Shown here: positions 11,501 through 28,801 of the stretch, in pieces | Layout: every line of letters starts with the position of its first letter | Numbering within the stretch: position 1 is the stretch's first letter | NCBI GenBank assembly: GCA_964244585.1 | Contig: CAXTJM010000018.1 | Location: forward strand, 2,084 to 66,083 | Reading direction: 5' to 3' | Length of the DNA stretch: 64,000 bases | From: an uncultured Acetobacteraceae bacterium | Lineage (GTDB): Bacteria > Pseudomonadota > Alphaproteobacteria > Acetobacterales > Acetobacteraceae | Translations under genes and position numbers: made by a program | The notes under the pieces: generated by a model | Seen by the model: only the letters and a program-made list of their open reading frames with translations | Told to the model about the DNA's origin: nothing | The model's database searches: none

Positions 11501-11516
11501 ATCCGTTGCGGCCGGT

Positions 11517-11593: not shown

Positions 11594-11786
11594 TCTCCCG
11601 TCGAACCGCCACGCAACGATTACCGGCCCATCCACGCGGCGGCGGCGAGCGGCATGGGCTGGGCAGAGTGGAACCAGTGCCCCTAGGATGCTGCCCATCG
11701 ACAGTCCGGCCGGACCGCGGCTTGGGGGCCAGTTCCCGATCAAGCCCCGCGGTGTGCGCCACCGAACCCCAATGCCAGGAGCCGCC

Positions 11787-13501: not shown

Positions 13502-15442
13502 TCAAGCCACCAGCATGAACGCATCGAAATAGGCTGCGAGTTCGGCGTAGGCATCAAGGGGTAGCACGTTGCCGATGTATTGGTCGGGGCGGACGACAAC
13601 GACACAGCCGTGCATCCGGTCGACCTCCCTCGCGTCGAAAATGTCCCCTGCGCGTGGATCGGCACAGAATATCTTCTCGTAATCCGTGAGGCCATACCGG
13701 CCTTTTCGCGGCCGCAGCAGGCCCGGCATGTCCGCGTCCGACAGGTCACGGTGGCCCTGCTGGAACACGGCGCGCACATCGATGACCGCGTCGATATCGG
13801 CGCCGGCCGGCCGGTATTTCAGCACCGGCGCCAGTGGCGCTTCGGCCAGGTGGATGCACAGGGCCCGCAACCTGGAGGATGGGCTGCCAGGATCTTCGGG
13901 GTCGGCGAACAGGAACAAGCGCCAGCGGCCATCGGCCTTGACGGCGTGGCCAAGTTGGACCGGTTTGGCGTCTGCCAGCCGGATGACCGGCGCCGAGTGG
14001 AACCGTGTGCCGATGATGAATGACCGGGCAAGAGCCTGGTGCCGCGGCTCGGCCGAAATCAGGGATGGTTGGTAGCGGGTGGCCGTGCCGGCCGTGAAGC
14101 GGCCTTGCTTGGCGAAGTAGCGCTGGAACTCCGCCGGGTCGACCCCCCCGTCCTCGCCGGCACGCTTGGGGGTGGCGCTGAACATCTTGGCGAATTCCCG
14201 GTCGAAGTCGATCAATTCCTTGGCGATTGCCTGCCGCTCAGCCGAGTAGGTATGCAGGATGGCTGGCGAGGCGTGCCCGCGCAGGACCGATGCGAGCTTC
14301 CAGCCAAGATTGAAGCCGTCCTGCATCGAGACGTTCATACCCTGACCGGCCTTCGGGCTGTGGGTGTGGCAGGCATCGCCCGCGATGAAGACGCTGGGCA
14401 GCTCGGGGCCGGCGCTGCCCGCAGGCAGGTCGTCGAATGTGTCGCAGAGCCGCTGGCCGATCTCGTAGACCGACCACCAGGCCACTTCCTTCACCTCCAG
14501 CGTATAGGGATGCAGGATTCGCTGCGCCGCCGCGACCAGGCGGTCTATCGTGATGTTGCGTTCGCTCACGCGCTCGTTGGCGCGCAACTTGTCGAGTTCG
14601 ATGTAGAGCCGCACGAGGTATCCCCCCTCGCGCGGGATGATCAGCATGCTGCCTTCGGCGCCCGAGTGGATGGCCGTCTTCAGGCGGATGTCGGGGAAGT
14701 CGGTGACGGCCAGGATGTCCATCACACCCCAGGCCTGGTTCGCCGAATCCCCCTGCAGGGATAGCCCCAGCGCCTTGCGCACCCCACTGCGCGCGCCGTC
14801 GCACCCGACGACGTAGCGGGCCTGCACCGTTTTCACCTGTCCAGGCTGGTCCGCCGCAGCCCTCTGCAGGGTCACCGTCACCGGGTGGCTTGGCAGGCCG
14901 GTGACGGTGTTTGCCGAGCGTGCGATCCGCAGGTCAAGGAACGTCCACCCGTAATCCGGCTCCAACCTAGTCGGACCATCGCGCATGACGTCGAGCAGGA
15001 AGTCATGCACCCGAGCCTGGTTCAGGATGACATGCGGGAATTCCGATAGCCCATCCTCGGTGTCCTGGATCTTGCCGCTGCGGATGATCATGTCCCGGCG
15101 AACATCGTCCGGCTTCCAGAAGCACGTCTCGTTGATCCAGTAGGACTCCCGCAGCACCCGCTGGCTGAAGCCGAACGCCTCGAACATCTCCGTCGTCCGG
15201 CAGGCGATGCCGTCCGCCTGGCCGACCAGCAACCGGCCGGGCTTCTGATCGACGATACGGGTCGTTATACCGCCGAACGCCGCGAGTTGAGCCGCGAGCG
15301 TCAGTCCAGCCGGCCCGCTGCCGACGATCAACACGTCCACCTGGCCGGGAAGCCCATCCACAGGCGGTTCCTGATCCCTGACTTGGGCCGGCGTGGCGAT
15401 GGCTGGATCGCCGGGGACGTAGCCATTCAGATGAAACTGCAT
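13502..15442 (-). CDS. FAD-dependent monooxygenase, phenol 2-/3-hydroxybenzoate 4-hydroxylase (MobA) family
   Basis: MQFHLNG N-terminus, GSGPAG, YVVGCDGARS, FIAGDACHTHSPKAGQGMN, C-terminal thioredoxin-like VVVRPDQY. Confidence 0.88.
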   Translation of the reverse strand: MQFHLNGYVPGDPAIATPAQVRDQEPPVDGLPGQVDVLIVGSGPAGLTLAAQLAAFGGITTRIVDQKPGRLLVGQADGIACRTTEMFEAFGFSQRVLRESYWINETCFWKPDDVRRDMIIRSGKIQDTEDGLSEFPHVILNQARVHDFLLDVMRDGPTRLEPDYGWTFLDLRIARSANTVTGLPSHPVTVTLQRAAADQPGQVKTVQARYVVGCDGARSGVRKALGLSLQGDSANQAWGVMDILAVTDFPDIRLKTAIHSGAEGSMLIIPREGGYLVRLYIELDKLRANERVSERNITIDRLVAAAQRILHPYTLEVKEVAWWSVYEIGQRLCDTFDDLPAGSAGPELPSVFIAGDACHTHSPKAGQGMNVSMQDGFNLGWKLASVLRGHASPAILHTYSAERQAIAKELIDFDREFAKMFSATPKRAGEDGGVDPAEFQRYFAKQGRFTAGTATRYQPSLISAEPRHQALARSFIIGTRFHSAPVIRLADAKPVQLGHAVKADGRWRLFLFADPEDPGSPSSRLRALCIHLAEAPLAPVLKYRPAGADIDAVIDVRAVFQQGHRDLSDADMPGLLRPRKGRYGLTDYEKIFCADPRAGDIFDAREVDRMHGCVVVVRPDQYIGNVLPLDAYAELAAYFDAFMLVA

Positions 15443-15657
15443 ATCGGGCGTTCCCATGCGATGACTAATTGATGAAGCTCGGCCACGTCCGCACTTCAGT
15501 GTCTGGCGATGTTCCGTATACTGTCAATTAGGCGACGTGCCCGGCACGGCGATCAGTCGGACACTTCCGCTCCCTGACGGCACGAGCGTCCGACGCATGT
15601 TCAGCCAGCTGTGGGCCATGACGTCGGCACAATTGACACGCCGCCTGAAAGACACTC

Positions 15658-15872: not shown

Positions 15873-17270
15873 ATGGCTCGGACGATGTTCGACAAAATCT
15901 GGGATCGGCACGTGGTGGCGGAGCTCGGCGAGGGCTGGGCGCTGCTGCACATAGACCGCCACCTGCTGCACGATCTCTCTGGCGGCCGTGCCCTGCAGGC
16001 GCTTGAGAAACGCGGCCTCACCGCCCGCAACCCCGAACTTGCTTTCGCCACGCCTGACCACGCGGTGTCCAGCGCACCGGGGCGGACGGCAGCCAGCTAC
16101 GGTCCGGGGGCGTTGCTGCATGAAGGCCTGCAAGCGCGGGCGCGGGCCAACCGCATCGCCTTTTTCGACCTGGGCGAGGATGGCCAGGGTATCGTGCACG
16201 TGATGGCGCCTGAACTCGGCATCGTGCTGCCGGGGACCACGCTGATCTGCGGCGACAGCCACACCTGCACCAATGGCGCGGTCGGGGCGCTGGCCTTCGG
16301 CGTGGGCTCGTCGGAGTTGACGCATGCCCTGGCGACGCAAACGCTGCGGCAACGCAAGCCGCGCAGCATGCGTTTGCGGTTCGAAGGTGTGTGCGGGCCG
16401 TATGTCGGTCCCAAAGACCTGATCCTGCACGCGATTGCCGTGCTGGGCGCCAAGGCGGGGACTGGCTACGCCGTGGAGTATGCCGGCGCAGCCGTGCGCG
16501 CGATGACCATCGAACAACGGTTGACGCTGTGCAACCTGTCGATTGAGATGGGCGCGAAGATGGGCATGATCGCGCCGGACGACACCACCTACGCCTATCT
16601 CCGGGACCGCCGCTTCGCTCCGCAAGGCGCCGCCTTCGTCGCTGCGATGGCAGAGTGGCGGCAGTTGCCGAGCGATCCGGGCGCGGTGTTCGAGCGGGAG
16701 GAGGTGATCGACGCCTCCATCGTGGCACCCACGGTGACCTGGGGCACGAGTCCGGAGCACGCGATCGGGGTCGATGGCCTCGTGCCGGATCCCGAAGCGT
16801 CGGCCAACCCGGCAATCCGCTCGGCTCAGGCGGCAGCGCTGCAGTACATGGACCTGCGGCCCGGGCAGCCCATCGCGGACACGAAGATCGACTGGGTGTT
16901 CATCGGCTCGTGCACCAACGGCCGGTTGTCCGATCTGCGGCAGGCCGCCTCCGTGCTCGGGGGCCGACGCGTGGCGCCCGGCGTCACTGCCTGGGTCGTA
17001 CCCGGCTCGGAGCGGGTGAAGCGCGATGCGGAAGCGGAGGGGCTCGACCGCTTGTTCCGCGACGCTGGCTTCGCCTGGCGGGAACCCGGATGCAGCATGT
17101 GCGTGGCCGCCAATGGGGAGCGTGTGCCGCCCGGCGCGCGGTCGGTCTCCACATCCAACCGCAACTTCGTCGGCCGGCAGGGCCCCGGGGCGCGCACCCA
17201 CCTCGCCAGCCCGGCGATGGCCGCCGCCGCCGCGTTGGCCGGACGCATCACCGACGTGCGGGAGATCTGA
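15873..17270 (+). CDS. LeuC-like aconitase-family [4Fe-4S] hydro-lyase large subunit (divergent paralog)
   Basis: FDKIWDRH, CGDSHTCT, IGSCTNGRL, PGCSMC, STSNRNF.GRQG; has HDLSGGRAL where canonical LeuC has HEVTSPQAF; no leuA or leuB nearby. Confidence 0.9.
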   Translation: MARTMFDKIWDRHVVAELGEGWALLHIDRHLLHDLSGGRALQALEKRGLTARNPELAFATPDHAVSSAPGRTAASYGPGALLHEGLQARARANRIAFFDLGEDGQGIVHVMAPELGIVLPGTTLICGDSHTCTNGAVGALAFGVGSSELTHALATQTLRQRKPRSMRLRFEGVCGPYVGPKDLILHAIAVLGAKAGTGYAVEYAGAAVRAMTIEQRLTLCNLSIEMGAKMGMIAPDDTTYAYLRDRRFAPQGAAFVAAMAEWRQLPSDPGAVFEREEVIDASIVAPTVTWGTSPEHAIGVDGLVPDPEASANPAIRSAQAAALQYMDLRPGQPIADTKIDWVFIGSCTNGRLSDLRQAASVLGGRRVAPGVTAWVVPGSERVKRDAEAEGLDRLFRDAGFAWREPGCSMCVAANGERVPPGARSVSTSNRNFVGRQGPGARTHLASPAMAAAAALAGRITDVREI

Positions 17271-17272
17271 CC

Positions 17273-17887
17273 GTGGAACAGTTCACCGTGCTCACCGGTA
17301 TGGCGGCGCCGTTGATGCGCGCGAACATCGACACCGATACCGTCATACGCATCGAGCGCTTGAGCAACACCGAGCCGGCCGACACCGCTCAGTGGCTGTT
17401 CGAGTCGCTGCGGTTCGACCCCGCCGGTCGGGAGAGACCCGACTTCGTGCTCAACCAGCCGCAGTTCCGCGACGCGCCGATCTTGCTGGCGGGCGAGAAT
17501 TTCGGCTGCGGGTCGTCGCGCGAGGGGGCTGTCTGGGCGCTGAAATACAGCGGCATACGCTGCGTGATCGCACCAAGCTTCGGGGATATCTTCGCGAACA
17601 ACTGCTACCAGAACTTCGTCCTTCCGGTGGCGCTGCCGGCCGACCAGGTGGAGCGGCTGGCTGCCGAATGCGCAGGCGGCAACGCCCGGGTGGTCGTCGA
17701 CCTTCGCCGAAAGGTGGTGGTGTCCCCGCACGGTGAGGAAATGCCGTTCGAGATCGAGGGGATCCGCCGGGACGCGCTCCTGGAGGGGCTTGACGAGATC
17801 GGGCTGACGTTGAAGCACGCGGCGGCGATCACGGCGTTCCAGGCGCGGGACAGGCAGGCGCGTCCGTGGGTCTGGCAGCCAGGATAA
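17273..17887 (+). CDS. LeuD-like hydro-lyase small subunit
   Basis: GTG start; RANIDTDTVI, GENFGCGSSREGAVWAL, SFGDIF.NN, LLEGLDEIGLTL. Confidence 0.92.
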   Translation: MEQFTVLTGMAAPLMRANIDTDTVIRIERLSNTEPADTAQWLFESLRFDPAGRERPDFVLNQPQFRDAPILLAGENFGCGSSREGAVWALKYSGIRCVIAPSFGDIFANNCYQNFVLPVALPADQVERLAAECAGGNARVVVDLRRKVVVSPHGEEMPFEIEGIRRDALLEGLDEIGLTLKHAAAITAFQARDRQARPWVWQPG

Positions 17888-17892
17888 GGCCG

Positions 17893-18663
17893 TCAGGCGG
17901 ACCGTGCCGCCATACGGCTTAGCCGCAGCATCACGGTATTGGCCCCCACGGCGAACAGCACGATCGCCAGCACCACCGCCGTGCTAAGCGCCACATTGTG
18001 TTGCGCCATGCCGCTGACCAGGAGGAAGCCCAACCCGCGTTGGGAGCTGAACATCTCACCGATCAGCACGCCCAGCAGCGTCAACGAGAAGCCCAGCCGC
18101 AGCCCGGCCACGATCTGCGGCAGGCAGGCCGGCAGCAGCACCCAGCGCATCGTCTGGCCGTGCGACAATCGCAGAGCGCGGGCAGTGCGCGGCAGCGCAG
18201 GCGGCAGGGTACGAACCGCGGCGATGGTGAACAGCGTGACCGGCACCAGGCCGTGCATGACGCCGAACGCCACCTTCGCGCTCAAGCCGAGTCCGAACAG
18301 CAGAAGGACGACCGGGTACAGCGTGACCTTCGGGATGGTGTAGAACCCGGCCAGCACCGGCTCCATCACATCGCCGGCGAAGCGGCCGACCCCAAGCACC
18401 AAGCCGAGCAGCAGGCCACACGCCGCCGATAGCACGAACGCCAGCAGGAAGGCCGCCATGGTCGCCCAGACCTGCCCCCAGAAGGCAGCCGTCACCACGA
18501 GCTGGCCGAGATAGGCGAAGGTCGTCAAGGGGCCGGTGATGGCCATTCCCCCCGTCCAGCGACCAACGGCCTGCCACACCAGCAGCACCACGACGAGCAG
18601 CAACACTACATCAAGGACGTTGCCGCCCGGCCGCACGACGTTGCGCGAAACCGCCGCGCTCAC
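17893..18663 (-). CDS. NitT/TauT family ABC transporter permease
   Basis: GTGA overlap with the upstream permease; YTIPKVTLYP, LPACLPQIVAGLRLG, GEMFSSQRGLG. Confidence 0.9.
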   Translation of the reverse strand: MSAAVSRNVVRPGGNVLDVVLLLVVVLLVWQAVGRWTGGMAITGPLTTFAYLGQLVVTAAFWGQVWATMAAFLLAFVLSAACGLLLGLVLGVGRFAGDVMEPVLAGFYTIPKVTLYPVVLLLFGLGLSAKVAFGVMHGLVPVTLFTIAAVRTLPPALPRTARALRLSHGQTMRWVLLPACLPQIVAGLRLGFSLTLLGVLIGEMFSSQRGLGFLLVSGMAQHNVALSTAVVLAIVLFAVGANTVMLRLSRMAARSA

Positions 18664-19421
18664 GACCGCGCGCGGCGCCGGACGAGCCGCCCCTCCCAGG
18701 TGTAGAGCACGATGTTGGCAAGGACCGCGACCAGCAGCACGAACAGCATCAGCCCGTACATCGTGCGGGTGTCGAACGCCTGGTATGCATACGAGATCGC
18801 GTAGCCGAGGCCACTGCCCGACAGGATGAACTCGCCCGCGATCACGCCGATGAGGGCGTAGCTCAAAGCCAGCTTGAAACCGCCGAAGAGTGACGGCATG
18901 GCGGCAGGCAGCATGACGGAAAAGAAGGTGCGCGCACGCCCGAGCCGCTGCACGCGCGCCACCTTGCGCAGGACCGGAGTGATGCTGTCCAGTCCGGACA
19001 CCGTGCTGATCACCATGGCCGGCACGGCGGACAACACGCCCAGCACCACCAGCGGCGCCATGCTCAGCCCTAGCAGCGCAACCAACAGCGGGTAGAACAC
19101 GAAGGTCGGCACCGAGTAGTAGGAGGCGAGCAGGGGATCGATCGCCCGGCGCAGCCGCGGCGCCGCATGCAGGGCCGCCCCCAAGGCCGTCCCACCCGTC
19201 ACGCTGCACATCCACGCCAGCGCCACGGTGCTGAAGGTCTGCAGCGTCGGCTCGGTGGCGGTGCCCGACCAAAATGCCTCCGCCATGGCCGCTACCATCC
19301 CGCTCGGCGGCAACACGGCTTGCGGATCGATCAACCCGCCCCGGCACGCAGCTTCCAGCAGCAGGACGCAGCCCGCCAGCAATGCCGCCCGCACCAGCAG
19401 GACCGTGCGGCCCCGCGTCAC
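18660..19421 (-). CDS. NitT/TauT family ABC transporter permease
   Basis: GTGA overlap with the ATPase gene; YYSVPTFVFYP, LPAAMPSLFGG, AGEFILSGSGLG. Confidence 0.9.
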   Translation of the reverse strand: MTRGRTVLLVRAALLAGCVLLLEAACRGGLIDPQAVLPPSGMVAAMAEAFWSGTATEPTLQTFSTVALAWMCSVTGGTALGAALHAAPRLRRAIDPLLASYYSVPTFVFYPLLVALLGLSMAPLVVLGVLSAVPAMVISTVSGLDSITPVLRKVARVQRLGRARTFFSVMLPAAMPSLFGGFKLALSYALIGVIAGEFILSGSGLGYAISYAYQAFDTRTMYGLMLFVLLVAVLANIVLYTWEGRLVRRRARS

Positions 19422-20206
19422 GCAGTGTGGCCCATGGCACGCAGCGACTCGGCCCGCAGCGAGGTCCATAGCCGCGCCGTAAGCTCGCCGAAATGCGGGT
19501 CGGACACGATGCGGCTGTCGCGGTCGCGCGGCCAACCGGTCGTCACCAGGTCGATGAAGGTGCCCGGCCGGGCCGACATCACGCCCACCCGGTCGGACAG
19601 CATCGCAGCCTCGTCCAGTGCGTGCGTGATCAACAGCACGGTGGCGCCCGTCTGCCGCCAAAGCCGCAGGAGTTCGTCGCCCATCAGCAGCCTGGTCTGC
19701 TGGTCCAGCGCGCCGAACGGCTCATCCAGCAGGATCAGCCGCGGCTGCTGCACCAACGTGCGCGCGATGCAGACGCGCTGCCGCATGCCGCCCGAGAGTT
19801 GCGCCGGGTAGTGCCCGACGAACTGCGTCAGGCCCATGAATGCGATCGCCCCGTCGACCCGGCGGTCGACCTCGGCGCGGCGCAGACCGGAGCGGCGCAG
19901 GCCGAAGGCGACGTTGTCGCGCACGGTCAGCCAGGCGAAGCTCGAATCCTCCTGGAACACCACGCCGACGCCATCCGGCACCTCGCCCCTGACCGGCTTG
20001 CCCTCGAAGCTGATGCTGCCCTCACTTGGCACGCCCAGCCCGGACAGCACGTCCAGCAAGGTAGACTTGCCGCAGCCCGAGGGGCCGACGACCGAGAAGA
20101 ACTCTCCCGGCGCCAATTCCAGGTCGACCGGGCCCAGCGCGTGGGTGGTCTGCTTGCCGGCATAACGCCGGGTCACGCCGCGAAGAATGGCGTGCGGCTC
20201 GGCCAT
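19418..20206 (-). CDS. NitT/TauT family ABC transporter ATP-binding protein
   Basis: GPSGCGKST, LSGGMRQR, ILLDEPFGALD, ITHALDEA. Confidence 0.95.
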   Translation of the reverse strand: MAEPHAILRGVTRRYAGKQTTHALGPVDLELAPGEFFSVVGPSGCGKSTLLDVLSGLGVPSEGSISFEGKPVRGEVPDGVGVVFQEDSSFAWLTVRDNVAFGLRRSGLRRAEVDRRVDGAIAFMGLTQFVGHYPAQLSGGMRQRVCIARTLVQQPRLILLDEPFGALDQQTRLLMGDELLRLWRQTGATVLLITHALDEAAMLSDRVGVMSARPGTFIDLVTTGWPRDRDSRIVSDPHFGELTARLWTSLRAESLRAMGHTA

Positions 20207-20207
20207 G

Positions 20208-21197
20208 TCAGCGTGCGGCGCGCTGGTCCGGCGGCAGGAAGGCGGTGTCGACCATCGTGGACCAGTTCGGCGCATCCTTGAGCTGGCCGGTGATCTGCAA
20301 GCCCTCGACCATATGGTTCATGCCCTCGTAGTCCAGGCGGCCATCGCTCCAGTAGTCGTCGGCCACCAGTTCCTTCATATGCGTGCGGTACAGGGCAACG
20401 TCCGGGTTGTTGTACGCCTTGGCCAGGATATCGGCCGACTCGTCCGGATGCGCCCGGATGTAGTCGAGCCCCTCCTTGCGCGCGGCGATGATCCCGCGGA
20501 CGACCTCCGGATGATCATGTGCGAACGCGACGGTGGTGACGCATACGGTCTGCATCATGCGGGGGGACATGACGTCCTTGACCCAGAACACCGGCTGGAT
20601 CGCACCGGGATTTTGCGAGAAGGTGAGTGTGTCGGTGAAGCCCGCATCCACCGCGCCGCTGGTGATCGCGGACAGGTTGGACCCAAGATCGCCGGCAGGA
20701 ACGAGACGGACCTGCTGCGCCGTCATGCCGTTCGCCTTCAGGGCCATCAGGATGATCATGTTGGAGACGGAATTGGGCGCGGTGAACGCGATACGCTTTC
20801 CGGCCAGGTCCTTGATGCTGTCCAGGGGAGACCCCTTCTTCGCCGCCCATAACTGGTCCGCCACGCTCTGCGCGCCCGCCGACGTTATCACGAGTTTCTG
20901 CCCGGCGTTGATCGCCTGTACCGCCGCCGCAAGCGAAACCTCCCCGAACGGGATGTCGCCCGCTATCGTGTTGCGCACGGCCGTTCCGCCGCCGGGCGCG
21001 GTGAGGATGCCGGTGATGTCCACGCCATGCTGCTTGAAGAAGCCTTTCTCCATGGCGACGGCATAGGGCGCCCCATAGAACTGGCCGCCCCAATGGGTGA
21101 CCGTGATGGTGTCGGCCCAGGCAGCGGTGCTGGCCATGAAACCCAGGCAGGCGACCACGGCACCCGCGACGGCACGGCCCTTTGCTCGTAACGCCAT
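20208..21197 (-). CDS. NMT1/SsuA-like ABC substrate-binding protein
   Basis: Signal peptide ending AWA; AVAMEKGFF, GKRIAFTAPNS, GAVDAG; followed by the TauB/TauC-type genes. Confidence 0.88.
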   Translation of the reverse strand: MALRAKGRAVAGAVVACLGFMASTAAWADTITVTHWGGQFYGAPYAVAMEKGFFKQHGVDITGILTAPGGGTAVRNTIAGDIPFGEVSLAAAVQAINAGQKLVITSAGAQSVADQLWAAKKGSPLDSIKDLAGKRIAFTAPNSVSNMIILMALKANGMTAQQVRLVPAGDLGSNLSAITSGAVDAGFTDTLTFSQNPGAIQPVFWVKDVMSPRMMQTVCVTTVAFAHDHPEVVRGIIAARKEGLDYIRAHPDESADILAKAYNNPDVALYRTHMKELVADDYWSDGRLDYEGMNHMVEGLQITGQLKDAPNWSTMVDTAFLPPDQRAAR

Positions 21198-21394
21198 CTT
21201 CAACTCCCCACTCCGCCGCCTCTTACCCGGCCGCGTTCGGCGGGACGCTAACATGCCCGCCGGTACAGCGGAAACGCTGTCTGGCGACGCCGGCGATCAT
21301 TTCCAAGCCGTGACCTTGGCAGACCTCCGGGTGGTGCCGACACCCGATCGCCTGTCGATCGATGCCGACCACAGGGCGCCGCCTCGTCTCCGGA

Positions 21395-22279
21395 TCACTC
21401 TGCCGCGGCCTTCACCTCGGGACCTTCGCGAAAACGGGTGCGCAGGGCATTCCACTCGTCGGCGCCGAAGCGGCGGAACCGGTCACCCACCTTCATCTGC
21501 CCGGCACTCGAGGGCGGCCTATCGGTGTCGCGCACGCTCGCCAGCACGGCGTCACAGGCGGTCATGACGGTGCTGAGCAGGAGGCTCGGCATGATCGCCA
21601 CGCGATAGCCCATCGCTTGCGCGTCCGACAGCGCGATGTCCGGCGTCTTGCCAGCCACCACGATGTTCAGCAGGCACGGGCCGTGGACCAGGCGCGGAAT
21701 CGCCTCCACCTCCTCCAGGCTTGCTGCCGCCTCCACGAAGGCGATGTCCGCGCCCGCATCCAGCGCGGCGTTGGCGCGGCCCACGGCTTCGTCCAAGCCG
21801 GCGATGGCGCGTGAGTCCGTGCGGGCGATCACGACGAAATCCGGATCGGTGCGGGCAGCGACGGCGGCGCGTATCTTGGCCACGAACTCCTCCCTCGGGA
21901 CCACCTCCTTGCCGTCCAGGTGACCGCAGCGCTTCGGCATGACCTGGTCTTCGATATGCAGGCCGGCGACCCCGCCGCGCTCGTATTCCATCACGGTGCG
22001 GGTCACGTTCAGCTCGTTGCCATAGCCGGTATCGGCGTCGGCGATGAGCGGCACGCCGGCCGCACGCGCGATCATGGCGGCATTCGCCGCCATCTCCGTC
22101 AACGTCAGCAAACCGAGATCGGGGTAGCCTCGCGCCATCGAAGTGCCGGCCCCGGTCATGTACAGGCAGTCGAACCCGGCCTGTTCCGCCAGCCGGGCGG
22201 TGATCCCGTCATATACGCCAGGCGCGCGGACCATGCGGCCGGATGCGAGCAACTCGCGCAGTTTGCGGGCGCTTGTCAT
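21395..22279 (-). CDS. Isocitrate lyase/PEP mutase superfamily C-C lyase (methylisocitrate/2,3-dimethylmalate lyase-like)
   Basis: APGVYDGITAR, IADADTGYG, HIEDQVMPKRCGH (catalytic Cys loop), IARTD. Confidence 0.9.
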   Translation of the reverse strand: MTSARKLRELLASGRMVRAPGVYDGITARLAEQAGFDCLYMTGAGTSMARGYPDLGLLTLTEMAANAAMIARAAGVPLIADADTGYGNELNVTRTVMEYERGGVAGLHIEDQVMPKRCGHLDGKEVVPREEFVAKIRAAVAARTDPDFVVIARTDSRAIAGLDEAVGRANAALDAGADIAFVEAAASLEEVEAIPRLVHGPCLLNIVVAGKTPDIALSDAQAMGYRVAIMPSLLLSTVMTACDAVLASVRDTDRPPSSAGQMKVGDRFRRFGADEWNALRTRFREGPEVKAAAE

Positions 22280-22686
22280 TGTACCGTCTCCTGCTGTTCG
22301 GCGGACATTTCGGCCCGGACCGTCACATAGACCTGGCCGTCGCGCACCGTGACCGGGTAGAAGCGCAGCCTGGTCGGGACCGGGCGGAACATCTCCATCC
22401 CGGTGTCGAGATCGTATTCCCAGCCATGCCACGGGCACGCCAGCACCTCGCCCTCGCGGTCATACACCAGTGCGCCGGGCTGGCTCGGCAGCCAGGTCCC
22501 GCCGACGATGCCGCGGCAGATCGGCGCACCCTTGTGCGGGCAGTAATTCCGCACCGCCCGCAATTGCCCGTCGCGCAGACGCACCACGCCGATAGCCTGC
22601 CCGGGAATGTCGACCATGACGAACCGGCCGGCGACGAAGCGCTCCTCCGGCCCGACACCGACCTCCGTCTTCGCGCGCAACGCCAT
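22276..22686 (-). CDS. Rieske [2Fe-2S] ferredoxin
   Basis: NYCPHKGAP...LACPWHGWEYD (CxH...CxxH); stop/start overlaps with both neighbours. Confidence 0.93.
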   Translation of the reverse strand: MALRAKTEVGVGPEERFVAGRFVMVDIPGQAIGVVRLRDGQLRAVRNYCPHKGAPICRGIVGGTWLPSQPGALVYDREGEVLACPWHGWEYDLDTGMEMFRPVPTRLRFYPVTVRDGQVYVTVRAEMSAEQQETVQ

Positions 22687-23807
22687 CAGGCCGGCAGCCG
22701 CAGCACGTCGCGGGCGTTGCTGCGGAAGATGCGGTCGCGGTCCTCCGGCGCCAGCGAACGCAACGACTGCATCGGCATGTCGTTGTCCCAGTGTGGGTAG
22801 TCCGTGCTGAAGCACAGGTTCTGCACGCCCACCATCTTCACCAGGCGTTCCAGGTCGCGGGGGTCCCGCGGCTCCTCGATCGGCTGGGTGGTGAACCAGA
22901 CATGCTCGTTCACGTAGTCGATCGGCGATTTCTTGACCCATGGCACCTCGTGCCGCAGGCCGCGCCAGAGGCGGTCCATGCGCAGCATCACGGGGATCGG
23001 CCACACGAAGCCATATTCCACGAACAGGATGCGCAGGCGGGAGAAACGCTCGAACAGTCCGTTCATGATCATGCTGTTGAGGTTGGCTTCCGCCCCCTGG
23101 CCCAGCGTGACGTAACGCTCGATATACGTATCGGGCATGCCGCCGGCCGGCATCGGCGCGCCATTGTACACGCCTTCGGACCCGGTGACGTGCAGCAGGA
23201 TGGGCAGGTCCATGTCGGAGGCAGCCTCGAACACGGGCCACCAGTAGCGGTTGCCGAACAGGATCGCGATCGGCGGCACGGCAACGGCGCAGACCTGGGC
23301 GTGCCCGCCGACACGGCGAATCTCGGCCGCCGCGGCAAGCGGGTCCTGGGCGGACACCACCGGCGCATAGACCAGGCGGCGGTCGAGCGGCAGCCATTGG
23401 TCGAGGTAGTAGTCGTTGGCCGCCTGTGCGATCACGATGCTTTCGTCGGCCGAGGCGTGGACCGAACAGAATGCGCCGGTTTGCAGGCTGTTCAGCAACG
23501 CGACCGAGATGTCGTTCGCGTCCAGGTGGTCCTTGATGAGGAAATGCGGATCGCTGCCGCCCGGGCCGCCGCTATCCGGCCTGGCGTCATCGCGCACGAC
23601 CGTCCCGTTGGGATGCGCGTAGCGCAAGGTGAGGCCACCACCGGATTGATGCGCCCGCTTGCGGACGAAACGCTGCCTCCAGGCGTCCGCCATGTAGGGA
23701 TAGAGGCTGCGGATGCCGTCGGCGAGCAACGGGTGCACGTCGCAGTCGACGATGCCGTGACGGTGCGTCTGCGAGGCCTGCGCAAGCGTCTGGGTGATGT
23801 CGTCCAT
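22686..23807 (-). CDS. Amidohydrolase_2-fold protein, probable PtmU3/AibH-type dinuclear-metal oxygenase
   Basis: IVDCDVH, ILLH, LFVEYG, WFTTQPIEEP, FSTDYPHWD; coupled to a Rieske gene. Fold confident, oxygenase function inferred. Confidence 0.8.
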   Translation of the reverse strand: MDDITQTLAQASQTHRHGIVDCDVHPLLADGIRSLYPYMADAWRQRFVRKRAHQSGGGLTLRYAHPNGTVVRDDARPDSGGPGGSDPHFLIKDHLDANDISVALLNSLQTGAFCSVHASADESIVIAQAANDYYLDQWLPLDRRLVYAPVVSAQDPLAAAAEIRRVGGHAQVCAVAVPPIAILFGNRYWWPVFEAASDMDLPILLHVTGSEGVYNGAPMPAGGMPDTYIERYVTLGQGAEANLNSMIMNGLFERFSRLRILFVEYGFVWPIPVMLRMDRLWRGLRHEVPWVKKSPIDYVNEHVWFTTQPIEEPRDPRDLERLVKMVGVQNLCFSTDYPHWDNDMPMQSLRSLAPEDRDRIFRSNARDVLRLPA

Positions 23808-23819
23808 GATGCCTTCCGG

Positions 23820-25211
23820 TCAGTCGTTGAGCAGCAATGCGTCGGCTGGCCCCGCTGCCGTCTCGGCCTCGGCAGCGATCGCTTCCAAGGAGCGGTTGCT
23901 GGTCTCATGGCCCAACAGGATCACCGCAAGGGCCATCAACGCCATGCTGCCGCTGAGGAAGCCTGCGACGCCACCGATCCCGAAGGCGCCGAAGACCAGC
24001 ACGATGACGAAGCCGACCTGGCTGGAGGTCAGGCGGCTGATCCCCAGCACGACGGACGCGCCGCGCAGCCGCAGCCGGGTCGGGAACATCTCCGGGATGT
24101 AGAGCGCGAAGCCCACCGCGACGATCGCATAGGCGCAGAGCGTCACGCCGGACCCGACGGCGATCAGTTCGATACCGTTGCCGACCATCGGATACGCCGC
24201 TCCCAGCACTGCCTCGCATAGGGCAAGGCATGCCAGGCTGCGGACCCGTCCGACCCGGTCGGCGATGAAGGCGCCGAGCAGCGCCCCCAGGGGGGCGCCG
24301 AGGCCCATGATGCCGGAGAACCAAAGAGACGAGCCGATCGACAGCCCTTGCTTCACCAGGAAGGTCGGGATCCAGGAAAGAAAGCCATACAGGCTGACGC
24401 CGCTGACACATGCGATGATGATGCCGAGCAAGGTGTTGCGGACCAGTCCGGGAGCCAGAAGCTCGCCATAGCGCCCCGGTGCCGGTGTCTCCTCCACTGC
24501 GTCGACCACGGGCGGCAGCGGGCCGGACCGCGCCGCCTCGGCCTCGATCGCGAGCAGCATGGCCTCTGCCTCGGCGGCACGGCCGCGCGATTCGAGCCAG
24601 CGCGGTGATTCCGGCATGTTCTTGCGCAGCGCCCAGACGATGAGTGCGCTGGCGCCCACGATGGCGAACAACCATCGCCAGCCGATCGCCGGGATCAACC
24701 AGGCGCCGCCCAGCCCGGTCACTGGCACCGCCAGGTTCGTCACCATGGACAGCAGCGCCACGTACCGGCCGCGTTTGGCCCGCGGCATGAATTCCGCCAG
24801 GCTGGAGTAGCCGACCACGATCTCGGCACCTAAGCCGATGCCCATGACGAAGCGGATGGCGATCAGCACCGTCATGTTGGGCGCGAACGCCGCAGCGATG
24901 GAGGCCAGGCCGAACAACATCAGGTTCACCTGGTAGCAATAGCGGCGGCCGTAGCGGTCGCCGAGCCAGCCGGCGGCGAAGGTGCCGCAAAGCATGCCCA
25001 GGAACGTCGCCGACATGAACCGCGCGTTGGCCGCAAGGTCCGACCAGCCGGATTTCACCAGCGACCCGAGCACGCCGCCCGCCAGGTAGATGTCACAGGC
25101 GTCCAGGAACATGCCGAGCCCCACCAGCCAGAGCACCCGGCGGTGGAAGCTGCCGATCGGCAATCGGTCCAGGCGCGCACCGGCATTCGTCCTCGTGGCG
25201 CCAAGCTGCAT
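23820..25211 (-). CDS. MFS transporter (aromatic/organic acid:H+ symporter-like)
   Basis: RLDRLP, GWLGDRYGRR (motif A), EFMPRAKRG, ESPRWL, PEMFPTRLR. Confidence 0.93.
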   Translation of the reverse strand: MQLGATRTNAGARLDRLPIGSFHRRVLWLVGLGMFLDACDIYLAGGVLGSLVKSGWSDLAANARFMSATFLGMLCGTFAAGWLGDRYGRRYCYQVNLMLFGLASIAAAFAPNMTVLIAIRFVMGIGLGAEIVVGYSSLAEFMPRAKRGRYVALLSMVTNLAVPVTGLGGAWLIPAIGWRWLFAIVGASALIVWALRKNMPESPRWLESRGRAAEAEAMLLAIEAEAARSGPLPPVVDAVEETPAPGRYGELLAPGLVRNTLLGIIIACVSGVSLYGFLSWIPTFLVKQGLSIGSSLWFSGIMGLGAPLGALLGAFIADRVGRVRSLACLALCEAVLGAAYPMVGNGIELIAVGSGVTLCAYAIVAVGFALYIPEMFPTRLRLRGASVVLGISRLTSSQVGFVIVLVFGAFGIGGVAGFLSGSMALMALAVILLGHETSNRSLEAIAAEAETAAGPADALLLND

Positions 25212-25303
25212 CAAACGGCTCCCGACATCGTGCTGCCCGGTCTGCTCGCGCCGAACTTCGTCACACAATGGCTCCGGTTCCACTGAAAGGCAACGAAGCT
25301 GGT

Positions 25304-25330
25304 TCGACCGGTCGATCCACGGACCGGTCG
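25304..25330. promoter_or_regulatory. Tandem GACCGGTC palindromes, putative operator upstream of the MFS-led operon
   Basis: Perfect 12-bp palindrome TCGACCGGTCGA (25304-25315) and a second GACCGGTCG 16 bp downstream. Confidence 0.4.
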
Positions 25331-25492
25331 TTATCTCGATGGCGGTCTTGAGGGTGTTCGATGCCTGCAGACCCCCGCCTGACTGCCAGGGATACGTGCG
25401 ACGGACCCAGCCCTGAAGGCGGCCGCACCGTTGACCCCAATCTCACCGTGTGGCGTCCTCCGCAGGGTGAGAAGGACAACAGAGGCACACAC

Positions 25493-26677
25493 ATGACGCT
25501 AGGGGTCGCGGACGAGGAGCAAACCCCTCGGTCGATCGGCATTCTGCCAATTCACGTTCTGACCAACGCACCGGTCATCTCACTGCCCGGCAACGGCCTT
25601 CTGACCAATGCCGCTGCACCGCTGGTGACCGGGACGGCGACGCCTGCATCCGAAGTTCACATCTATGACGGAGCGGCCCAGGCCGGCATCGCAACTGCCG
25701 ACCCGTCGACCGGCACCTGGCAATCGGCGCTCTCCGGGGTATCGGCCGGCTTCCAGCAGGTCACCGCCATGTCCTCTGGCCCGGGCGAGTTCAGCTCCCT
25801 GCCCTCCGCGGCGGTGAATGTCTTCGGCTTATCCGCGCCGGTGAACGGCGTAAGCAGCGTAGACGTGGCGTCCGTGGACATCGCATCAGTTCTTGGCCAG
25901 GGGTTTGGACTGCAGTTCGTAGCCGGGACGGAGGCCGTGCAGTTATTGGACAGCACGCTGAGCGTGGGTCCGGACACCGACGCCGCCTATGTCGCCCGAC
26001 TGTTCCAGGGCTTGTTCGGCACGGTACCGGACAGCAGTAATCTAAGCGTTTGGACCAACTACCTGGCAGCAGGGCATAGCTATACGGACGTCGCCGCTGG
26101 TTTCCTGCAAGCTCCCGTCGCTGCCGCCATAACCGCACTGCCGGATGCCGGTTACGTGCAGCAGCTGTTCACTGGCCTGCTCGGCCGGGCGCCCTCGGCA
26201 TCGGAGTCAGGTGCGTACACTGCGGTCCTCGCAGCAGGAGCGTCCCGGGCATCCGTACTGGCGGGCATCGCCGATGCACCAGAGGCGAAGGTCGCATTGG
26301 CGTCGCAGACGGCACGGCTGTTCGTGACGGACAGCGCGAAGCAAGTCGTAAACAACATGTTCGAAGCCGGGCTTGGACACGAAGCCACCCAGCCGGTGGT
26401 GCAAGGGCTTGCAGCCAACATCGATGCCGGATTGATGGCGCCTCAACTGGCGCAGGAAGTCGCGAGCACGCCGGAGTTTCTCGGGCTGCATGCGGGCGAA
26501 ACCAACGCAGCCTATGTCGCGGACATCTACACGGCCGGGCTTGGCCGCGCACCGACCAGTGCGGAGGTGACCTTCGACGTTGGCAACCTGGAATCGGGTG
26601 TGTTCAGCCGCTCGACGATACTGGCGGCCATCGCAAATTCACCAGAGGCCATGGCGCATTTGACGCATCCGCTGTGA
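25493..26677 (+). CDS. Surface protein with one Ig-like repeat and about three DUF4214 repeats
   Basis: TNAAAPLVTGTATPASEVHIYDG...ADPSTGTW (Bap-type Ig); YVQQLFTGLLGRAPS, IYTAGLGRAPT, SRSTILAAIANSPEA (DUF4214-like). Start uncertain (25361 or 25493); no signal peptide seen. Confidence 0.75.
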   Translation: MTLGVADEEQTPRSIGILPIHVLTNAPVISLPGNGLLTNAAAPLVTGTATPASEVHIYDGAAQAGIATADPSTGTWQSALSGVSAGFQQVTAMSSGPGEFSSLPSAAVNVFGLSAPVNGVSSVDVASVDIASVLGQGFGLQFVAGTEAVQLLDSTLSVGPDTDAAYVARLFQGLFGTVPDSSNLSVWTNYLAAGHSYTDVAAGFLQAPVAAAITALPDAGYVQQLFTGLLGRAPSASESGAYTAVLAAGASRASVLAGIADAPEAKVALASQTARLFVTDSAKQVVNNMFEAGLGHEATQPVVQGLAANIDAGLMAPQLAQEVASTPEFLGLHAGETNAAYVADIYTAGLGRAPTSAEVTFDVGNLESGVFSRSTILAAIANSPEAMAHLTHPL

Positions 26678-26917
26678 AGGATCGGATACCGGGTAGGGCA
26701 GGCCGCAAGCTCTCGCCGCAATTCAACTTTCCTATGGCGACGGATGCAAACGATGTGATCAAACGGTGATCGCCGCCTGTGGCGGCCATCGATGAGCTTG
26801 GAGAGTGGACAAATATGCTCGTTTCTGTCACAAATGGGATAGTTGCACGTTGATACTTGCAACAGCGGCTATGTCCACCTTGCACCAGCGGCAACTCGTT
26901 CCACTCGACACACGGTG

Positions 26918-28801
26918 ATGGACGGCACGGCCTTCGAGCCGCTCGGGATATTGCTGCAACGCTTCCTGGTGGAGCGGCCAGTCGATCGGCGTCCCCTGTA
27001 TTGGAGCGCCGCAGCTGGACACCCCGCCGCGACCACGCAGCCCAGGGTAACCTGTCGAGCCGACAGCCTGGTCGTGACACAGGGGACCATCCTCAGCTTC
27101 GACACGTATTTCAACAGCTTCTTCGAAGCACACTGGCGCCGGCACACGTCGCTCGGCGCCGTCGTGCTCCGGCTGGTGGTGCAAGGCGCTGGTATGCTGA
27201 GGGTGTTCCGCCGCGCCGTGGGCCGCAAGGTCTTGGTGCACGAACAGCCGCTCGACGCCGACCACGTCACAATCAGGCTGCCGAACGAGGCGGTGACGTT
27301 CCGCCAGTATGGCACGCTCTGCGTGGAGTTGGAGGCGGACAGGTCAGACCTCGTCTTCGTCGCCGGCGGCTGGTGGAGCGACGCGCCGGCCCCGGCGGAT
27401 GTCGGTCTGGCCGCCGTGTTCTGCACGTTCGGCCGGGAGGCCGAGATCACCCGGCTTGTGGGCACGGTGGCAAACGATGCGGAAGCCGCGGCAACGCTGG
27501 CGCGGCTCATCGTCGTCAACCAGGGCAAGCCGGGCCTGGCCGGCCATCCAGTGATGCAGGACGCCGCCTTGTCCCTGGGCATGAAGCTTGCGGTCGTGGA
27601 GCAAGGCAATTTCGGCGGCGCCGGCGGGTTCGGTCGCGGCATTTTGGCTGCACTGGATGATCCGGCAGCGACGCATGCGGTGCTGCTCGACGACGACATC
27701 CTGATCGAACCGGACAGCCTGCTGCGGATGGCCGCTTTCTTCGCCTTCTGCCGCCGCGACATGGTGGTGGGCGGCCACATGCTCGACCTGGTGCAGCCAA
27801 ACCTGCTCTACGAGGCCGGCGCCGTCGTGTCGGACCGGCATTGGGAGTTCAAGCCGCAGCACCATGGTCTTGCACTGGACGAACCGTCCGCCCTTGAGAC
27901 CCTCGCGAGGCCGGGCGCTGTCCACTACAATGGCTGGTGGTGCTGCGGCTTTCCCCTGGCGATCGTGGAGGAGTACGGTATGCCGCTGCCGTGCTTCATC
28001 CGCGGCGACGACGTGGAGTTCGGCCTGCGGCTGCACATGAACGGCATCCCGACGGTATCGATGCCCGGCATCGCCGTGTGGCACGAACCGTTCTACCTCA
28101 AGCTCGGCGCGTGGCAGCCTTTCTACGAGACGCGCAACCTGCTGATCGCTGCCTCGCTCCACCTGGCGCCGAGCCGTTCGGGTGCGGTGCGCCGGATCGG
28201 ACGGCAATTCGTGGTAAACCTGCTGACCTTCCGTTACTACACTGCGGCCCTCATGCTGGCGGCGATCGAGGATTTCCTTCGTGGGCCCGGCAAAATGCAT
28301 GATAATCCGGCCGAGCTGCATGCAAGCCTGGCAGCGTTCCGCATCGCGTATCCGCCACGGACGACCCGGCGGGAGACAGTGTTGGAGCCGCAGATTCTGC
28401 GCCGCAGCCCGCGCACCCGGTTCGCCTGCATCGCCTTGCTCGTATACCTCACGCTCCGGAATGCCGTTGTCCCGACGGGAACGACGGTCGCCAAGACGCT
28501 CGATGTGGCCGACCTGAATTGGCTCACGATGCGGGATGTCGAACACATCGCGATCGAGCGCTGGTGGGATGACGAGCTGCCGACCGTCCGCCGGTCGCGC
28601 GAACATCATCGTGCCCTGCTGCGCCGGGCCATCTCGGTTCTATCCCGTCTGTATCGCGACCTTCCGGCGATGGCGGCGGCGTGGCGGAGCGAAGTGCCAG
28701 TGCTCACATCGCAAGCTTTTTGGCGCAGCTACCTTGGGGTGCCAAGCCGGGGCGGCGTCATGTCGGGCGAACCCACGGCCCCGGTCACGTCAGACGCTTG
28801 A
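26918..28801 (+). CDS. GlfT2-like galactofuranosyltransferase (GT2)
   Basis: SFDTYFNSF...HWRRHT N-domain, NFGGAGGFGRG, LLDDDILIEPDSL, YNGWWCC, LPCFIRGDDVEFGLR; coupled to glf. Confidence 0.85.
   Translation: MDGTAFEPLGILLQRFLVERPVDRRPLYWSAAAGHPAATTQPRVTCRADSLVVTQGTILSFDTYFNSFFEAHWRRHTSLGAVVLRLVVQGAGMLRVFRRAVGRKVLVHEQPLDADHVTIRLPNEAVTFRQYGTLCVELEADRSDLVFVAGGWWSDAPAPADVGLAAVFCTFGREAEITRLVGTVANDAEAAATLARLIVVNQGKPGLAGHPVMQDAALSLGMKLAVVEQGNFGGAGGFGRGILAALDDPAATHAVLLDDDILIEPDSLLRMAAFFAFCRRDMVVGGHMLDLVQPNLLYEAGAVVSDRHWEFKPQHHGLALDEPSALETLARPGAVHYNGWWCCGFPLAIVEEYGMPLPCFIRGDDVEFGLRLHMNGIPTVSMPGIAVWHEPFYLKLGAWQPFYETRNLLIAASLHLAPSRSGAVRRIGRQFVVNLLTFRYYTAALMLAAIEDFLRGPGKMHDNPAELHASLAAFRIAYPPRTTRRETVLEPQILRRSPRTRFACIALLVYLTLRNAVVPTGTTVAKTLDVADLNWLTMRDVEHIAIERWWDDELPTVRRSREHHRALLRRAISVLSRLYRDLPAMAAAWRSEVPVLTSQAFWRSYLGVPSRGGVMSGEPTAPVTSDA

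Follow-up and report, generated by a model that had tools for sequence, protein, structure and literature searches.

Introduction

Amidohydrolase-related dinuclear oxygenases (AROs) are an enzyme class already known, having been named in 2024 and 2026. They were found by their definers through genomic association with small Rieske ferredoxins (PMC10811679), and the superfamily comprises ~17,000 sequences that carry an N-terminal D-x-H motif and a C-terminal D-x-P-H-x-D/E motif (PMC13154177). Both motifs are absent from the characterised PF04909 hydrolases and decarboxylases (PMC13154177). The described systems closest to the locus reported here are the 2-aminoisobutyrate hydroxylase AibH1H2/AibG/AibF, the pair SfbO/SfbR, and D3EI84 (8SM7), which is the closest solved relative and is itself an orphan (PMC10811679). 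That locus is a gene cluster at 15873-25211 of a 64,000-nucleotide stretch of DNA from an uncultured Acetobacteraceae bacterium (contig CAXTJM010000018.1; the whole stretch is called the window, and positions are counted from its first letter). It combines a predicted ARO and a Rieske ferredoxin with a C-C lyase, a LeuCD-like hydratase and two importers.

The lyase and hydratase recall other pathways. Nicotinate fermentation in Eubacterium barkeri ends with the dimethylmaleate hydratase DmdAB, followed by the 2,3-dimethylmalate lyase Dml. This pairs a two-subunit aconitase-family hydratase with a Cys lyase of the isocitrate lyase (ICL)/phosphoenolpyruvate (PEP) mutase superfamily, as in the window. 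The back half of the methylcitrate cycle (PrpD or AcnD/PrpF, aconitase, PrpB) uses the same logic of dehydration, rehydration and cleavage to pyruvate. In pseudomonads, maleate/citraconate hydratase is a LeuCD-like two-subunit enzyme that yields D-malate or D-citramalate in the hydrolytic gentisate branch. It is a LeuCD-type paralog in catabolism that converts a substituted maleate to a (2R)-hydroxy acid, much as is proposed here for the window pair. Neither an ICL-family lyase nor an ARO is known to take part in that branch.

Taken together, gene content and conserved neighbourhoods indicate that the window probably holds a composite cluster, built of two modules with one C-C lyase in common, that breaks down at least one small-to-medium carboxylic acid with branches or substituents. 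A catabolic rather than a biosynthetic role is favoured by the binding-protein-dependent importer and by the GntR and LysR regulators of related loci.

Architecture of the cluster

The cluster consists of ten genes: two on the plus strand, and eight on the minus strand that converge on them. Gene calls were drawn from GC3 frame analysis, open reading frame calls, start-site inspection and translations; the window has ~67% G+C, and lists of open reading frames are therefore noisy. Families were assigned by Pfam and NCBIfam profile searches of all ten proteins, and domain matches are given in brackets.

15873-17270, plus strand: LeuC-like protein, the large subunit of an aconitase-family (de)hydratase and a divergent paralog of the lyase-linked kind (Aconitase 1e-150)
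17273-17887, plus strand: LeuD-like small subunit of the same (de)hydratase (Aconitase_C 4e-25)
17893-18663, minus strand: permease 2 of a NitT/TauT-type ATP-binding cassette (ABC) importer (BPD_transp_1 4e-19)
18660-19421, minus strand: ABC importer permease 1 (BPD_transp_1 2e-28)
19418-20206, minus strand: ABC importer ATPase (ABC_tran 1.5e-33)
20208-21197, minus strand: periplasmic substrate-binding protein (SBP), NMT1/SsuA-like, with a signal peptide (NMT1 3e-30)
21198-21394: intergenic gap of 197 nt that separates the ABC genes from the lyase gene
21395-22279, minus strand: C-C lyase of the ICL/PEP-mutase superfamily, 2,3-dimethylmalate-lyase-like (PEP_mutase 9e-48)
22276-22686, minus strand: small soluble Rieske [2Fe-2S] ferredoxin, 136 residues (Rieske 3e-15)
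22686-23807, minus strand: predicted ARO, orphan substrate (Amidohydro_2 3.8e-29, full length)
23820-25211, minus strand: MFS transporter resembling aromatic-acid/H+ symporters; the minus-strand array starts with this gene (MFS_1 1.5e-37, Sugar_tr 1.5e-36)

The boundaries agree exactly with those of a public gene call made independently on this metagenome contig (locus L087; compared loci are numbered in this way). Neighbouring genes overlap by 1-4 nt or lie at most 12 nt apart, with the 197-nt gap (21198-21394) as the single exception. The stop codons of LeuD (17887) and of the facing permease (17893) converge with 5 nt between them. For the MFS gene, ATG at 25211 is the most probable start, and GTG at 25283 is open too. 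A first-pass annotation made from the sequence had listed the same ten families and spacings, and the gene calls, Pfam, NCBIfam and L087 uphold all of them; the lower end and the genes of its span stand, and its upper end, 25330, lies ~120 nt beyond the likely MFS start.

An internal promoter in the 197-nt gap is possible. A promoter and terminator scan of the cluster, gap included, returned no consensus and nothing above shuffled expectation. Homologs of a reductase, plant-type ferredoxin (Fer2), GntR, PrpD, PrpF, short-chain dehydrogenase/reductase (SDR) or TctC were sought in the window, and none were found.

The predicted oxygenase and its Rieske ferredoxin

Among PDB sequences, the Amidohydro_2 protein matches 8SM7 best (5e-69), followed by AibH2 (1e-54) and SfbO (1e-52), with AibH1, 8SM9 and 8SM8 next. 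ARO structures as a whole match at 1e-45 to 5e-69, PtmU3 at 4e-17 and decarboxylases at 1e-12 or weaker. The N-terminal motif, D22-V23-H24, falls in a predicted strand (18-23), and the C-terminal motif reads D335-Y-P-H338-W-D340; neither motif varies among 15 aligned homologs, the most distant of which are 51% identical. Membership was judged by a D-x-H motif that lies on the first beta strand and supplies ligands of site 1, and by a D-x-P-H-x-D/E motif preceded by ~200 or more residues. The AlphaFold model has a pTM of 0.81, and its top 20 Foldseek matches are all AROs (TM 0.75-0.82). Judged by fold and by both motifs, the protein belongs to the ARO superfamily.

A different assignment was weighed: an enzyme of the LigI/LigJ/LigW/ACMSD type that hydrolyses, decarboxylates or hydrates its substrate without redox chemistry, with the Rieske protein working for another system. 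It draws on the profile searches: Pfam gives Amidohydro_2 only, and no NCBIfam model or equivalog matches or names the protein. Both ARO-specific motifs speak against it, as do the wide separation of ARO structures from decarboxylases in the sequence matches and the agreeing fold ranking. So does gene context. The Rieske gene overlaps the ARO stop codon, and a Rieske gene adjoins the ARO in 80 of 85 loci (a one-genome-per-species scan gave 80 loci, and further look-ups brought the number counted to 85). On this evidence a non-redox role is highly improbable, and the earlier description of the protein as an amidohydrolase-fold dimetal oxygenase, rather than an enzyme of the hydrolase/decarboxylase type, appears sound.

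The published rule for the Mn-dependent, low-potential class calls for a hydrophobic gamma1, a hydrophilic gamma2 and an aromatic gamma4 residue, usually with a Rieske neighbour. Read from the motifs, gamma1 is Val23 and gamma4 is Trp339; gamma2 is Asn105, which is less certain because it was assigned by pairwise alignment with SfbO alone. The window ARO is accordingly classed, as a prediction, with the Mn-dependent low-potential enzymes. The Rieske protein carries a C-P-H...C-P-W-H ligand motif, and its nearest solved relatives are Rieske ferredoxins of oxygenase systems. It is predicted to be the electron donor to the ARO.

AibH1H2/AibG/AibF, SfbO/SfbR and D3EI84 have the same fold as the window ARO and the same D-x-H and D-x-P-H-x-D motifs. 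The likeness to the AibH1H2/SfbO/D3EI84 group extends to gamma1 Val, gamma4 Trp, a TM of ~0.8 and a small Rieske gene directly downstream. Identity to that group is only ~30-40%, however, and gamma5 is Asn (N341), at a position where an aromatic residue has been proposed to stack against the Rieske protein. The single, homomeric-type ARO gene resembles SfbO and D3EI84 and not the H1/H2 pair of AibH1H2. The window has one ARO gene and one Rieske gene but lacks homologs of a reductase and of Fer2, and the locus thus also departs from a three-component hydroxylase of the AibH1H2 type.

Neighbourhoods of the oxygenase

All relatives with an ARO identity of at least 73% are Acetobacteraceae, and all have the order MFS-ARO-Rieske-lyase. 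Several of these Acetobacteraceae relatives have a gene for Fer2 and one for an FAD reductase (FdR) between Rieske and lyase, and a divergent LysR regulator is frequent. Among the compared loci, L001, L006, L007, L096 and L168 have both Fer2 and FdR. The MFS-ARO-Rieske-(Fer2-FdR)-lyase module also occurs at the metagenome locus L096 and in Roseomonas chloroacetimidivorans. The nearest ARO in the species scan (94%), on OZ240681.1, shares with the window a block of eight genes that runs from MFS through both permeases (~86% DNA identity); the flanks differ. LeuCD is nearby in none of the 85 ARO loci.

OZ240681.1 has a second lyase paralog at the position of the window's 197-nt gap. In L003 (12407-13306) and L176 (15395-16282), the lyase and the ABC genes have between them another lyase paralog that contains the Cys and is 47% identical to the first. 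The gap in the window, at the position of the second lyase of L003 and L176, holds no recognisable lyase remnant.

More distant ARO homologs, 50-57% identical, are found beside PrpD, TctC, RraA-like aldolases and Cys-less PEP-mutase-family proteins, and also aconitase and Nramp genes. Since these contexts differ, no substrate can be transferred from them, and they give only a loose hint of carboxylate metabolism. The PEP-mutase-family neighbours lack the catalytic Cys (KRAHYH) and are therefore not orthologs of the window lyase. One of them, a betaproteobacterial protein (L084, 15655-16545), has the Cys replaced in the sequence PKRAHYH; those at L012 (3833-4843) and L014 (6683-7690) are 60-61% identical to it and form with it a separate subgroup. 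Its members occur with PrpD-family genes and with binding proteins of the TctC or NMT1 kind; L014 also has an AcnA-type aconitase. At L012, an Nramp (Mn2+/Fe2+) transporter gene (4880-6235) lies near a 57%-identical ARO of the predicted Mn-dependent class.

The lyase

The best solved relatives of the lyase are the Aspergillus niger 2,3-dimethylmalate lyase (DMML; 3fa3, 1e-64) and oxaloacetate acetylhydrolase (OAH; 1e-62). In an alignment with DMML, OAH and PrpB, the window protein retains the Mg2+-binding Asp/Glu motifs (DADTGYG, HIEDQ) and the KRCGH gating loop with its catalytic Cys. In the segment where we take Pro against a marker Ser to distinguish DMML from OAH, it reads I-M-P-S, compared with I-F-P-F in DMML and I-F-S-F in OAH. 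An oxaloacetate hydrolase was excluded on this Pro at the OAH marker position.

PrpB was excluded as well, by scores below the equivalog cut-offs: 271.1 bits on TIGR02317 (cut-off 354.4) and 210.5 bits on NF008455 (cut-off 353). In an alignment with E. coli PrpB, the lyase also appears to lack the succinate-carboxylate-binding residues (Arg241 and Thr212 positions). The methylcitrate cycle thus differs from the cluster in its lyase, and no methylcitrate synthase is present. The protein also lies below the CPEP-mutase equivalog cut-off. It is best described, from sequence comparison, as a 2-alkylmalate-type lyase that is closest to 2,3-dimethylmalate lyase. Its PEP_mutase domain, KRCGH loop and nearest solved relative agree with the KRCGH lyase of the first-pass annotation.

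PEP mutase and phosphonopyruvate hydrolase were rejected by motif and by model score. The lyase reads EDQVMPKRCGH in place of the PEP-mutase/phosphonopyruvate-hydrolase signature E-D-K-x5-N-S, and scores 121.9 bits on TIGR02320 (PEP mutase; cut-off 319.55) and 121.2 on TIGR02321 (phosphonopyruvate hydrolase; cut-off 374.4). These values bear on the whole cluster, which could in principle serve phosphonate metabolism: a PEP-mutase-family enzyme, a LeuCD-like isomerase, a phosphonate-type SBP and an ARO acting on a phosphonate. Such a role finds some precedent in the pantaphos cluster, which pairs PEP mutase with isopropylmalate-dehydratase-like genes (PMC7858074). One L-ARO sits in a phosphonate gene cluster, SfbO binds 2-aminoethylphosphonate, and the window SBP has a secondary Pfam match to Phosphonate-bd (1.7e-12). 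The best match of that SBP is nevertheless NMT1/SsuA-like, and the nearest solved relatives of the lyase are Cys-dependent; with the lyase motif and scores, this leaves a phosphonate pathway scarcely credible.

The LeuCD pair

The window LeuC scores 575.6 bits on TIGR00170 (cut-off 560.25), compared with 939.9 for the E. coli protein and 556-603 for lyase-linked plasmid copies. On TIGR00171 (cut-off 116) the window LeuD scores 182 bits and E. coli LeuD 343.9. NF009116 is the best NCBIfam model for the window LeuC (690 bits), and likewise for the lyase-linked LeuCs. E. coli LeuC is 49.5% identical to the window protein, but the lyase-linked LeuC on a plasmid of Methylobacterium aquaticum is 72.5% identical; Methylobacterium LeuCs that match the window LeuC at 72-73% identity are themselves 93-99% identical to that plasmid-borne, lyase-linked copy. 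The window LeuD is 54-57% identical to the lyase-linked LeuDs of M. aquaticum and Variovorax paradoxus, and 44% to E. coli LeuD. No leuA or leuB was found near the pair.

Two views of these genes were compared. An ordinary isopropylmalate isomerase of leucine biosynthesis, standing here by chance, would account for both scores being above cut-off and for the leuC/leuD labels that the NCBI pipeline gives to the plasmid homologs. The 64-kb window shows no further leuCD, and the OZ240681.1 ortholog lies amid housekeeping genes. A housekeeping, fortuitously adjacent leuCD was indeed favoured first, on the absence of LeuCD from the 85 ARO loci and the ~130 kb that separate it from the cluster on OZ240681.1; it was dropped after the search from the lyase side described below, which places LeuC directly after the lyase in 24 of 33 close homologs. 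The far higher scores of the E. coli proteins, the modest identity to E. coli LeuC, the close kinship with lyase-linked copies and the missing leuA and leuB all argue against the ordinary role, which is very unlikely. By its marginal equivalog scores and its grouping with lyase-linked copies, the pair is most probably a divergent paralog rather than canonical leuCD, in agreement with the first-pass annotation, which had called it divergent.

The lyase-linked plasmid leuC/leuD genes of L170 (M. aquaticum, 9885-11893) and L173 (8897-10910) carry the NCBI pipeline label of leucine biosynthesis (GO:0009098). Because the plasmid copies score at the equivalog cut-off, this label is probably a systematic mis-annotation.

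In comparison with E. barkeri, the hydratase of the window is of the bacterial LeuC/LeuD type, not the E. barkeri DmdB/archaeal LeuD type: its LeuD scores 72.1 bits on TIGR02087 (LeuD/DmdB type), below the cut-off of 108.95. The likeness to DmdAB/Dml is therefore one of analogy and not of orthology. The window also comes from an aerobic alphaproteobacterium, upstream nicotinate-fermentation genes were not seen in it, and an O2-dependent oxygenase and importers are attached. By analogy, DmdAB with Dml may still be regarded as the closest mechanistic precedent for the lyase-LeuCD-ABC module.

The importers

The ABC genes are, on their profile matches, those of a NitT/TauT-family importer, with an NMT1/SsuA-like SBP, two BPD_transp_1 permeases and an NtrCD/TauB-like ATPase. 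The closest NCBIfam models of the ATPase are the nitrate and taurine ABC ATPases. The SBP, whose N-terminus reads ...STAAWA/DT, scores 93.5 bits on SsuA_fam, under the cut-off. As all components lie below the nitrate, taurine and sulfonate equivalog cut-offs, no ligand was assigned. The nearest NCBIfam model of the MFS protein is the AAHS family, again with a score under the cut-off. Both uptake systems of the first-pass annotation, the MFS transporter and the NitT/TauT-type ABC importer, are thus confirmed as families by Pfam and NCBIfam.

Neighbourhoods of the lyase and loci that join both modules

Counts from the lyase side cover those metagenome scan loci whose sequence runs on for 600 nt or more beyond the lyase. 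At a lyase identity of at least 59%, 24 of 33 loci have LeuC immediately after the lyase; the numbers are 3 of 13 at 52-59% and 0 of 20 below 52%. Close homologs of the lyase are often followed immediately, on the same strand, by LeuC-LeuD homologs.

The M. aquaticum plasmid pMaq22A_2p carries, beside a GntR gene, lyase-leuC-leuD-SBP-ATPase-permease-permease, with the ABC gene order of the window. Identities to the window proteins are 70% for the lyase, 72% for LeuC, 54% for LeuD, 52% for the SBP, 76.5% for the ATPase, and 56% and 57% for permeases 1 and 2. A 53% homolog of the window MFS lies 3.4 kb upstream of this operon, by a CoA transferase gene and an HMG-CoA-lyase-like gene. The corresponding array in V. 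paradoxus is GntR/lyase-LeuC-LeuD-TctC-PrpF-TctC, and a Paraburkholderia plasmid has lyase-leuC-leuD with GntR, a PrpD-family gene and an MFS gene. In several genomes the lyase-LeuCD module has genes of the PrpD and PrpF families as neighbours, which recalls the methylcitrate cycle.

Both modules are joined at L176 (LeuC 93%), where the convergent LeuCD/ABC layout is exactly that of the window. As in M. aquaticum, CoA-transferase/acyl-CoA-lyase genes flank the module. At L177 (LeuC 87%), LeuCD converges on permease-permease-ATPase-SBP-MFS-lyase, with neither an ARO nor a Rieske gene; this arrangement shows the modularity of the cluster. In R. chloroacetimidivorans (L168/L169, JBNBZS010000087.1), a LysR gene is followed on one strand by ARO-Rieske-Fer2-FdR-lyase-TctC-FeADH-lyase2-BVMO-esterase-SDR-LeuC-LeuD-TctC, where FeADH is an alcohol dehydrogenase and BVMO a Baeyer-Villiger monooxygenase. 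IS110-family transposases bracket this array, which resembles a mobile catabolic island in which additional steps are encoded.

The locus is better described as two separable conserved modules with the lyase in common. That the families might not co-occur elsewhere had been named in the first-pass annotation as a ground against its pathway idea. They do: ARO-Rieske-lyase is present in all close ARO relatives, LeuC follows the lyase at the frequency given above, the M. aquaticum operon gathers lyase, LeuCD and ABC genes, and the convergent LeuCD/ABC junction is kept in L176 and L177. As regards gene content and co-occurrence, the idea holds.

Proposed pathway

If the cluster is catabolic as proposed, the first module would begin with uptake of its substrate by the MFS symporter. 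The homomeric ARO, with a predicted Mn-containing dinuclear cofactor, would hydroxylate an unactivated C-H bond using O2, with electrons passed on by the adjacent Rieske ferredoxin. The window lacks the Fer2/FdR pair of the relatives, and a reductase encoded elsewhere must therefore serve.

In the second module, the NitT/TauT-type ABC importer would take up an unsaturated or hydroxylated acid. The LeuCD paralog would then hydrate this acid or shift its hydroxyl group, in the manner of the maleate, citraconate and dimethylmaleate hydratases or of isopropylmalate isomerase. Its product would be a (2R)-2-alkylmalate-type acid.

The step common to both modules would be cleavage of the C2-C3 bond by the dimethylmalate-lyase-like enzyme, through a Mg2+/Cys (KRCGH) mechanism. 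It would release a shorter carboxylic acid together with a 2-oxo acid, most likely pyruvate, and the product of the ARO would join the route at or just before this cleavage. The most economical reading is a convergent funnelling of substituted C4-dicarboxylates, in which saturated substrates pass through the ARO and unsaturated or hydroxylated ones through LeuCD, both to 2-alkylmalate. We infer here the order of steps, the feed from ARO to lyase, the alkyl-succinate, -maleate or -malate nature of the substrate, and the products.

A more specific version can be drawn. Here, the ARO would hydroxylate the tertiary C-H of an alkylsuccinate to give a 2,3-dialkylmalate, which the lyase would cleave to pyruvate and a (fatty) acid, with LeuCD feeding in alkylmaleates or regio-isomeric alkylmalates. 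At this level of detail the scheme is a long shot. Candidate substrates would be methyl- and dimethylsuccinate and, in view of the lichen source, 2-alkyl-3-methylsuccinates of lichens or fungi, for example roccellic acid. Alkyl-methyl-succinic and alkylcitric acids are lichen and fungal products. The public sequencing runs that share most sampled words with 21395-23807 bear a lichen metagenome label (best 0.98), with moss and air weaker; those holding the sequence appear to be DNA metagenomes, the kind of run being a guess. A tie between these alkyl acids and the cluster is speculation.

Several observations weigh against a single composite pathway. The LeuCD ortholog of OZ240681.1 lies ~130 kb from the ARO/lyase/ABC cluster, amid housekeeping genes, and seven further ARO-lyase loci have no LeuCD within 10 kb; with LeuCD far away or absent at such loci, it is not obligatory for the ARO-lyase pair. 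The window LeuC is marginally above the NCBIfam LeuC equivalog cut-off. The 197-nt gap may split two transcription units, and neither a cluster-specific ferredoxin reductase nor a regulator is encoded in the window. The varied contexts of the 50-57%-identical AROs count on the same side. In R. chloroacetimidivorans, the Baeyer-Villiger monooxygenase, esterase, SDR and alcohol dehydrogenase between the modules hint at several steps before cleavage, and the extra genes there, in L176 and in M. aquaticum mean that the real pathway may have more steps.

These points could be taken further, to two or three independent units that are merely neighbours (ARO/Rieske/lyase/MFS, the ABC importer, and LeuCD), the ARO product not feeding the LeuCD/lyase chemistry. 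ARO-lyase loci without LeuCD or ABC genes and lyase-LeuCD-ABC loci without an ARO fit this explanation, as do the distance of LeuCD on OZ240681.1, the gap ahead of the ABC genes and the opposite strand of LeuCD. What it leaves out is that the lyase is common to both modules, and that LeuC association is specific to the orthologous group of the window lyase. On the M. aquaticum plasmid, orthologs of ABC, LeuCD and MFS all surround the lyase; the convergent LeuCD/ABC junction is kept in L176 and L177, and R. chloroacetimidivorans has ARO, lyase and LeuCD in an array on one strand. Independent units are unlikely on balance, though with a genuine claim to attention, and a composite catabolic cluster with a common lyase remains the preferred reading.

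Flanking genes

On the minus strand at 13502-15457, divergent from the LeuC paralog, lies the gene of a large FAD monooxygenase of the phenol-hydroxylase type (FAD_binding_3 + Phe_hydrox_dim). It is not conserved beside LeuCD in L086, L176 and L177. Farther out, at 9329-11402, divergent genes for a lysine-2,3-aminomutase-like radical SAM protein and a truncated class II lysyl-tRNA-synthetase-like protein constitute the EF-P lysylation pair EpmB/EpmA.

Directly upstream of the MFS gene, 25361-29973 encodes a DUF4214 repeat protein, a GlfT2-like galactofuranosyltransferase and a UDP-galactopyranose mutase, which suggests synthesis of a galactofuranose-containing surface polysaccharide. A cluster of the benzoyl-CoA oxygenase (box) type, so named from domain content only, occupies 32644-39989 on the minus strand. 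Its genes encode an AMP-binding CoA ligase, a protein of the enoyl-CoA hydratase family, a diiron protein resembling BoxB (weak PaaA_PaaC) and a reductase resembling BoxA (Fer4 + NAD_binding_1). This reductase gene, at 32.6-34.0 kb, is assigned to the benzoyl-CoA oxygenase cluster and not to the ARO.

Significance

Neither a link between an ARO and a dimethylmalate-lyase-like enzyme nor a lyase-LeuCD-transporter catabolic unit was found described in the searchable literature, which covers few subscription journals. Pathways combining lyase and LeuCD, or ARO and lyase, brought up only PrpB mis-annotations and the pantaphos cluster in that literature. The described ARO contexts are without the dimethylmalate-lyase-like enzyme, the LeuCD paralog and the organic-acid importers of the window. 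The first-pass annotation had put the pathway forward as a candidate undescribed one; this stands for the combination of ARO and dimethylmalate-lyase-like enzyme in the searchable literature, but not for the pairing of ARO and Rieske ferredoxin, which is published and belongs to a named superfamily.

Natural substrates are known for just a handful of AROs, and the structurally solved Rieske-coupled enzymes are orphans or act on buffer surrogates only. The conserved, chemically interpretable context of organic-acid importers and a dimethylmalate-lyase-like enzyme narrows the search for the ARO substrate and allows deorphanisation to be tested directly in relatives that are in culture. The lyase-LeuCD(-transporter) operon, which is automatically annotated as leucine biosynthesis, is spread widely among Alpha- and Betaproteobacteria on their plasmids and chromids. 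To recognise a hydratase/lyase pair with a catabolic role in it would put right what is probably a systematic error of annotation, and would point to an aerobic route, so far undescribed, for substituted maleates or malates. Were the alkylsuccinate scheme true, a Rieske-coupled, Mn-type ARO would for the first time have a physiological substrate and a pathway within primary carbon catabolism, and branched dicarboxylates would have an O2-dependent, CoA-independent route.

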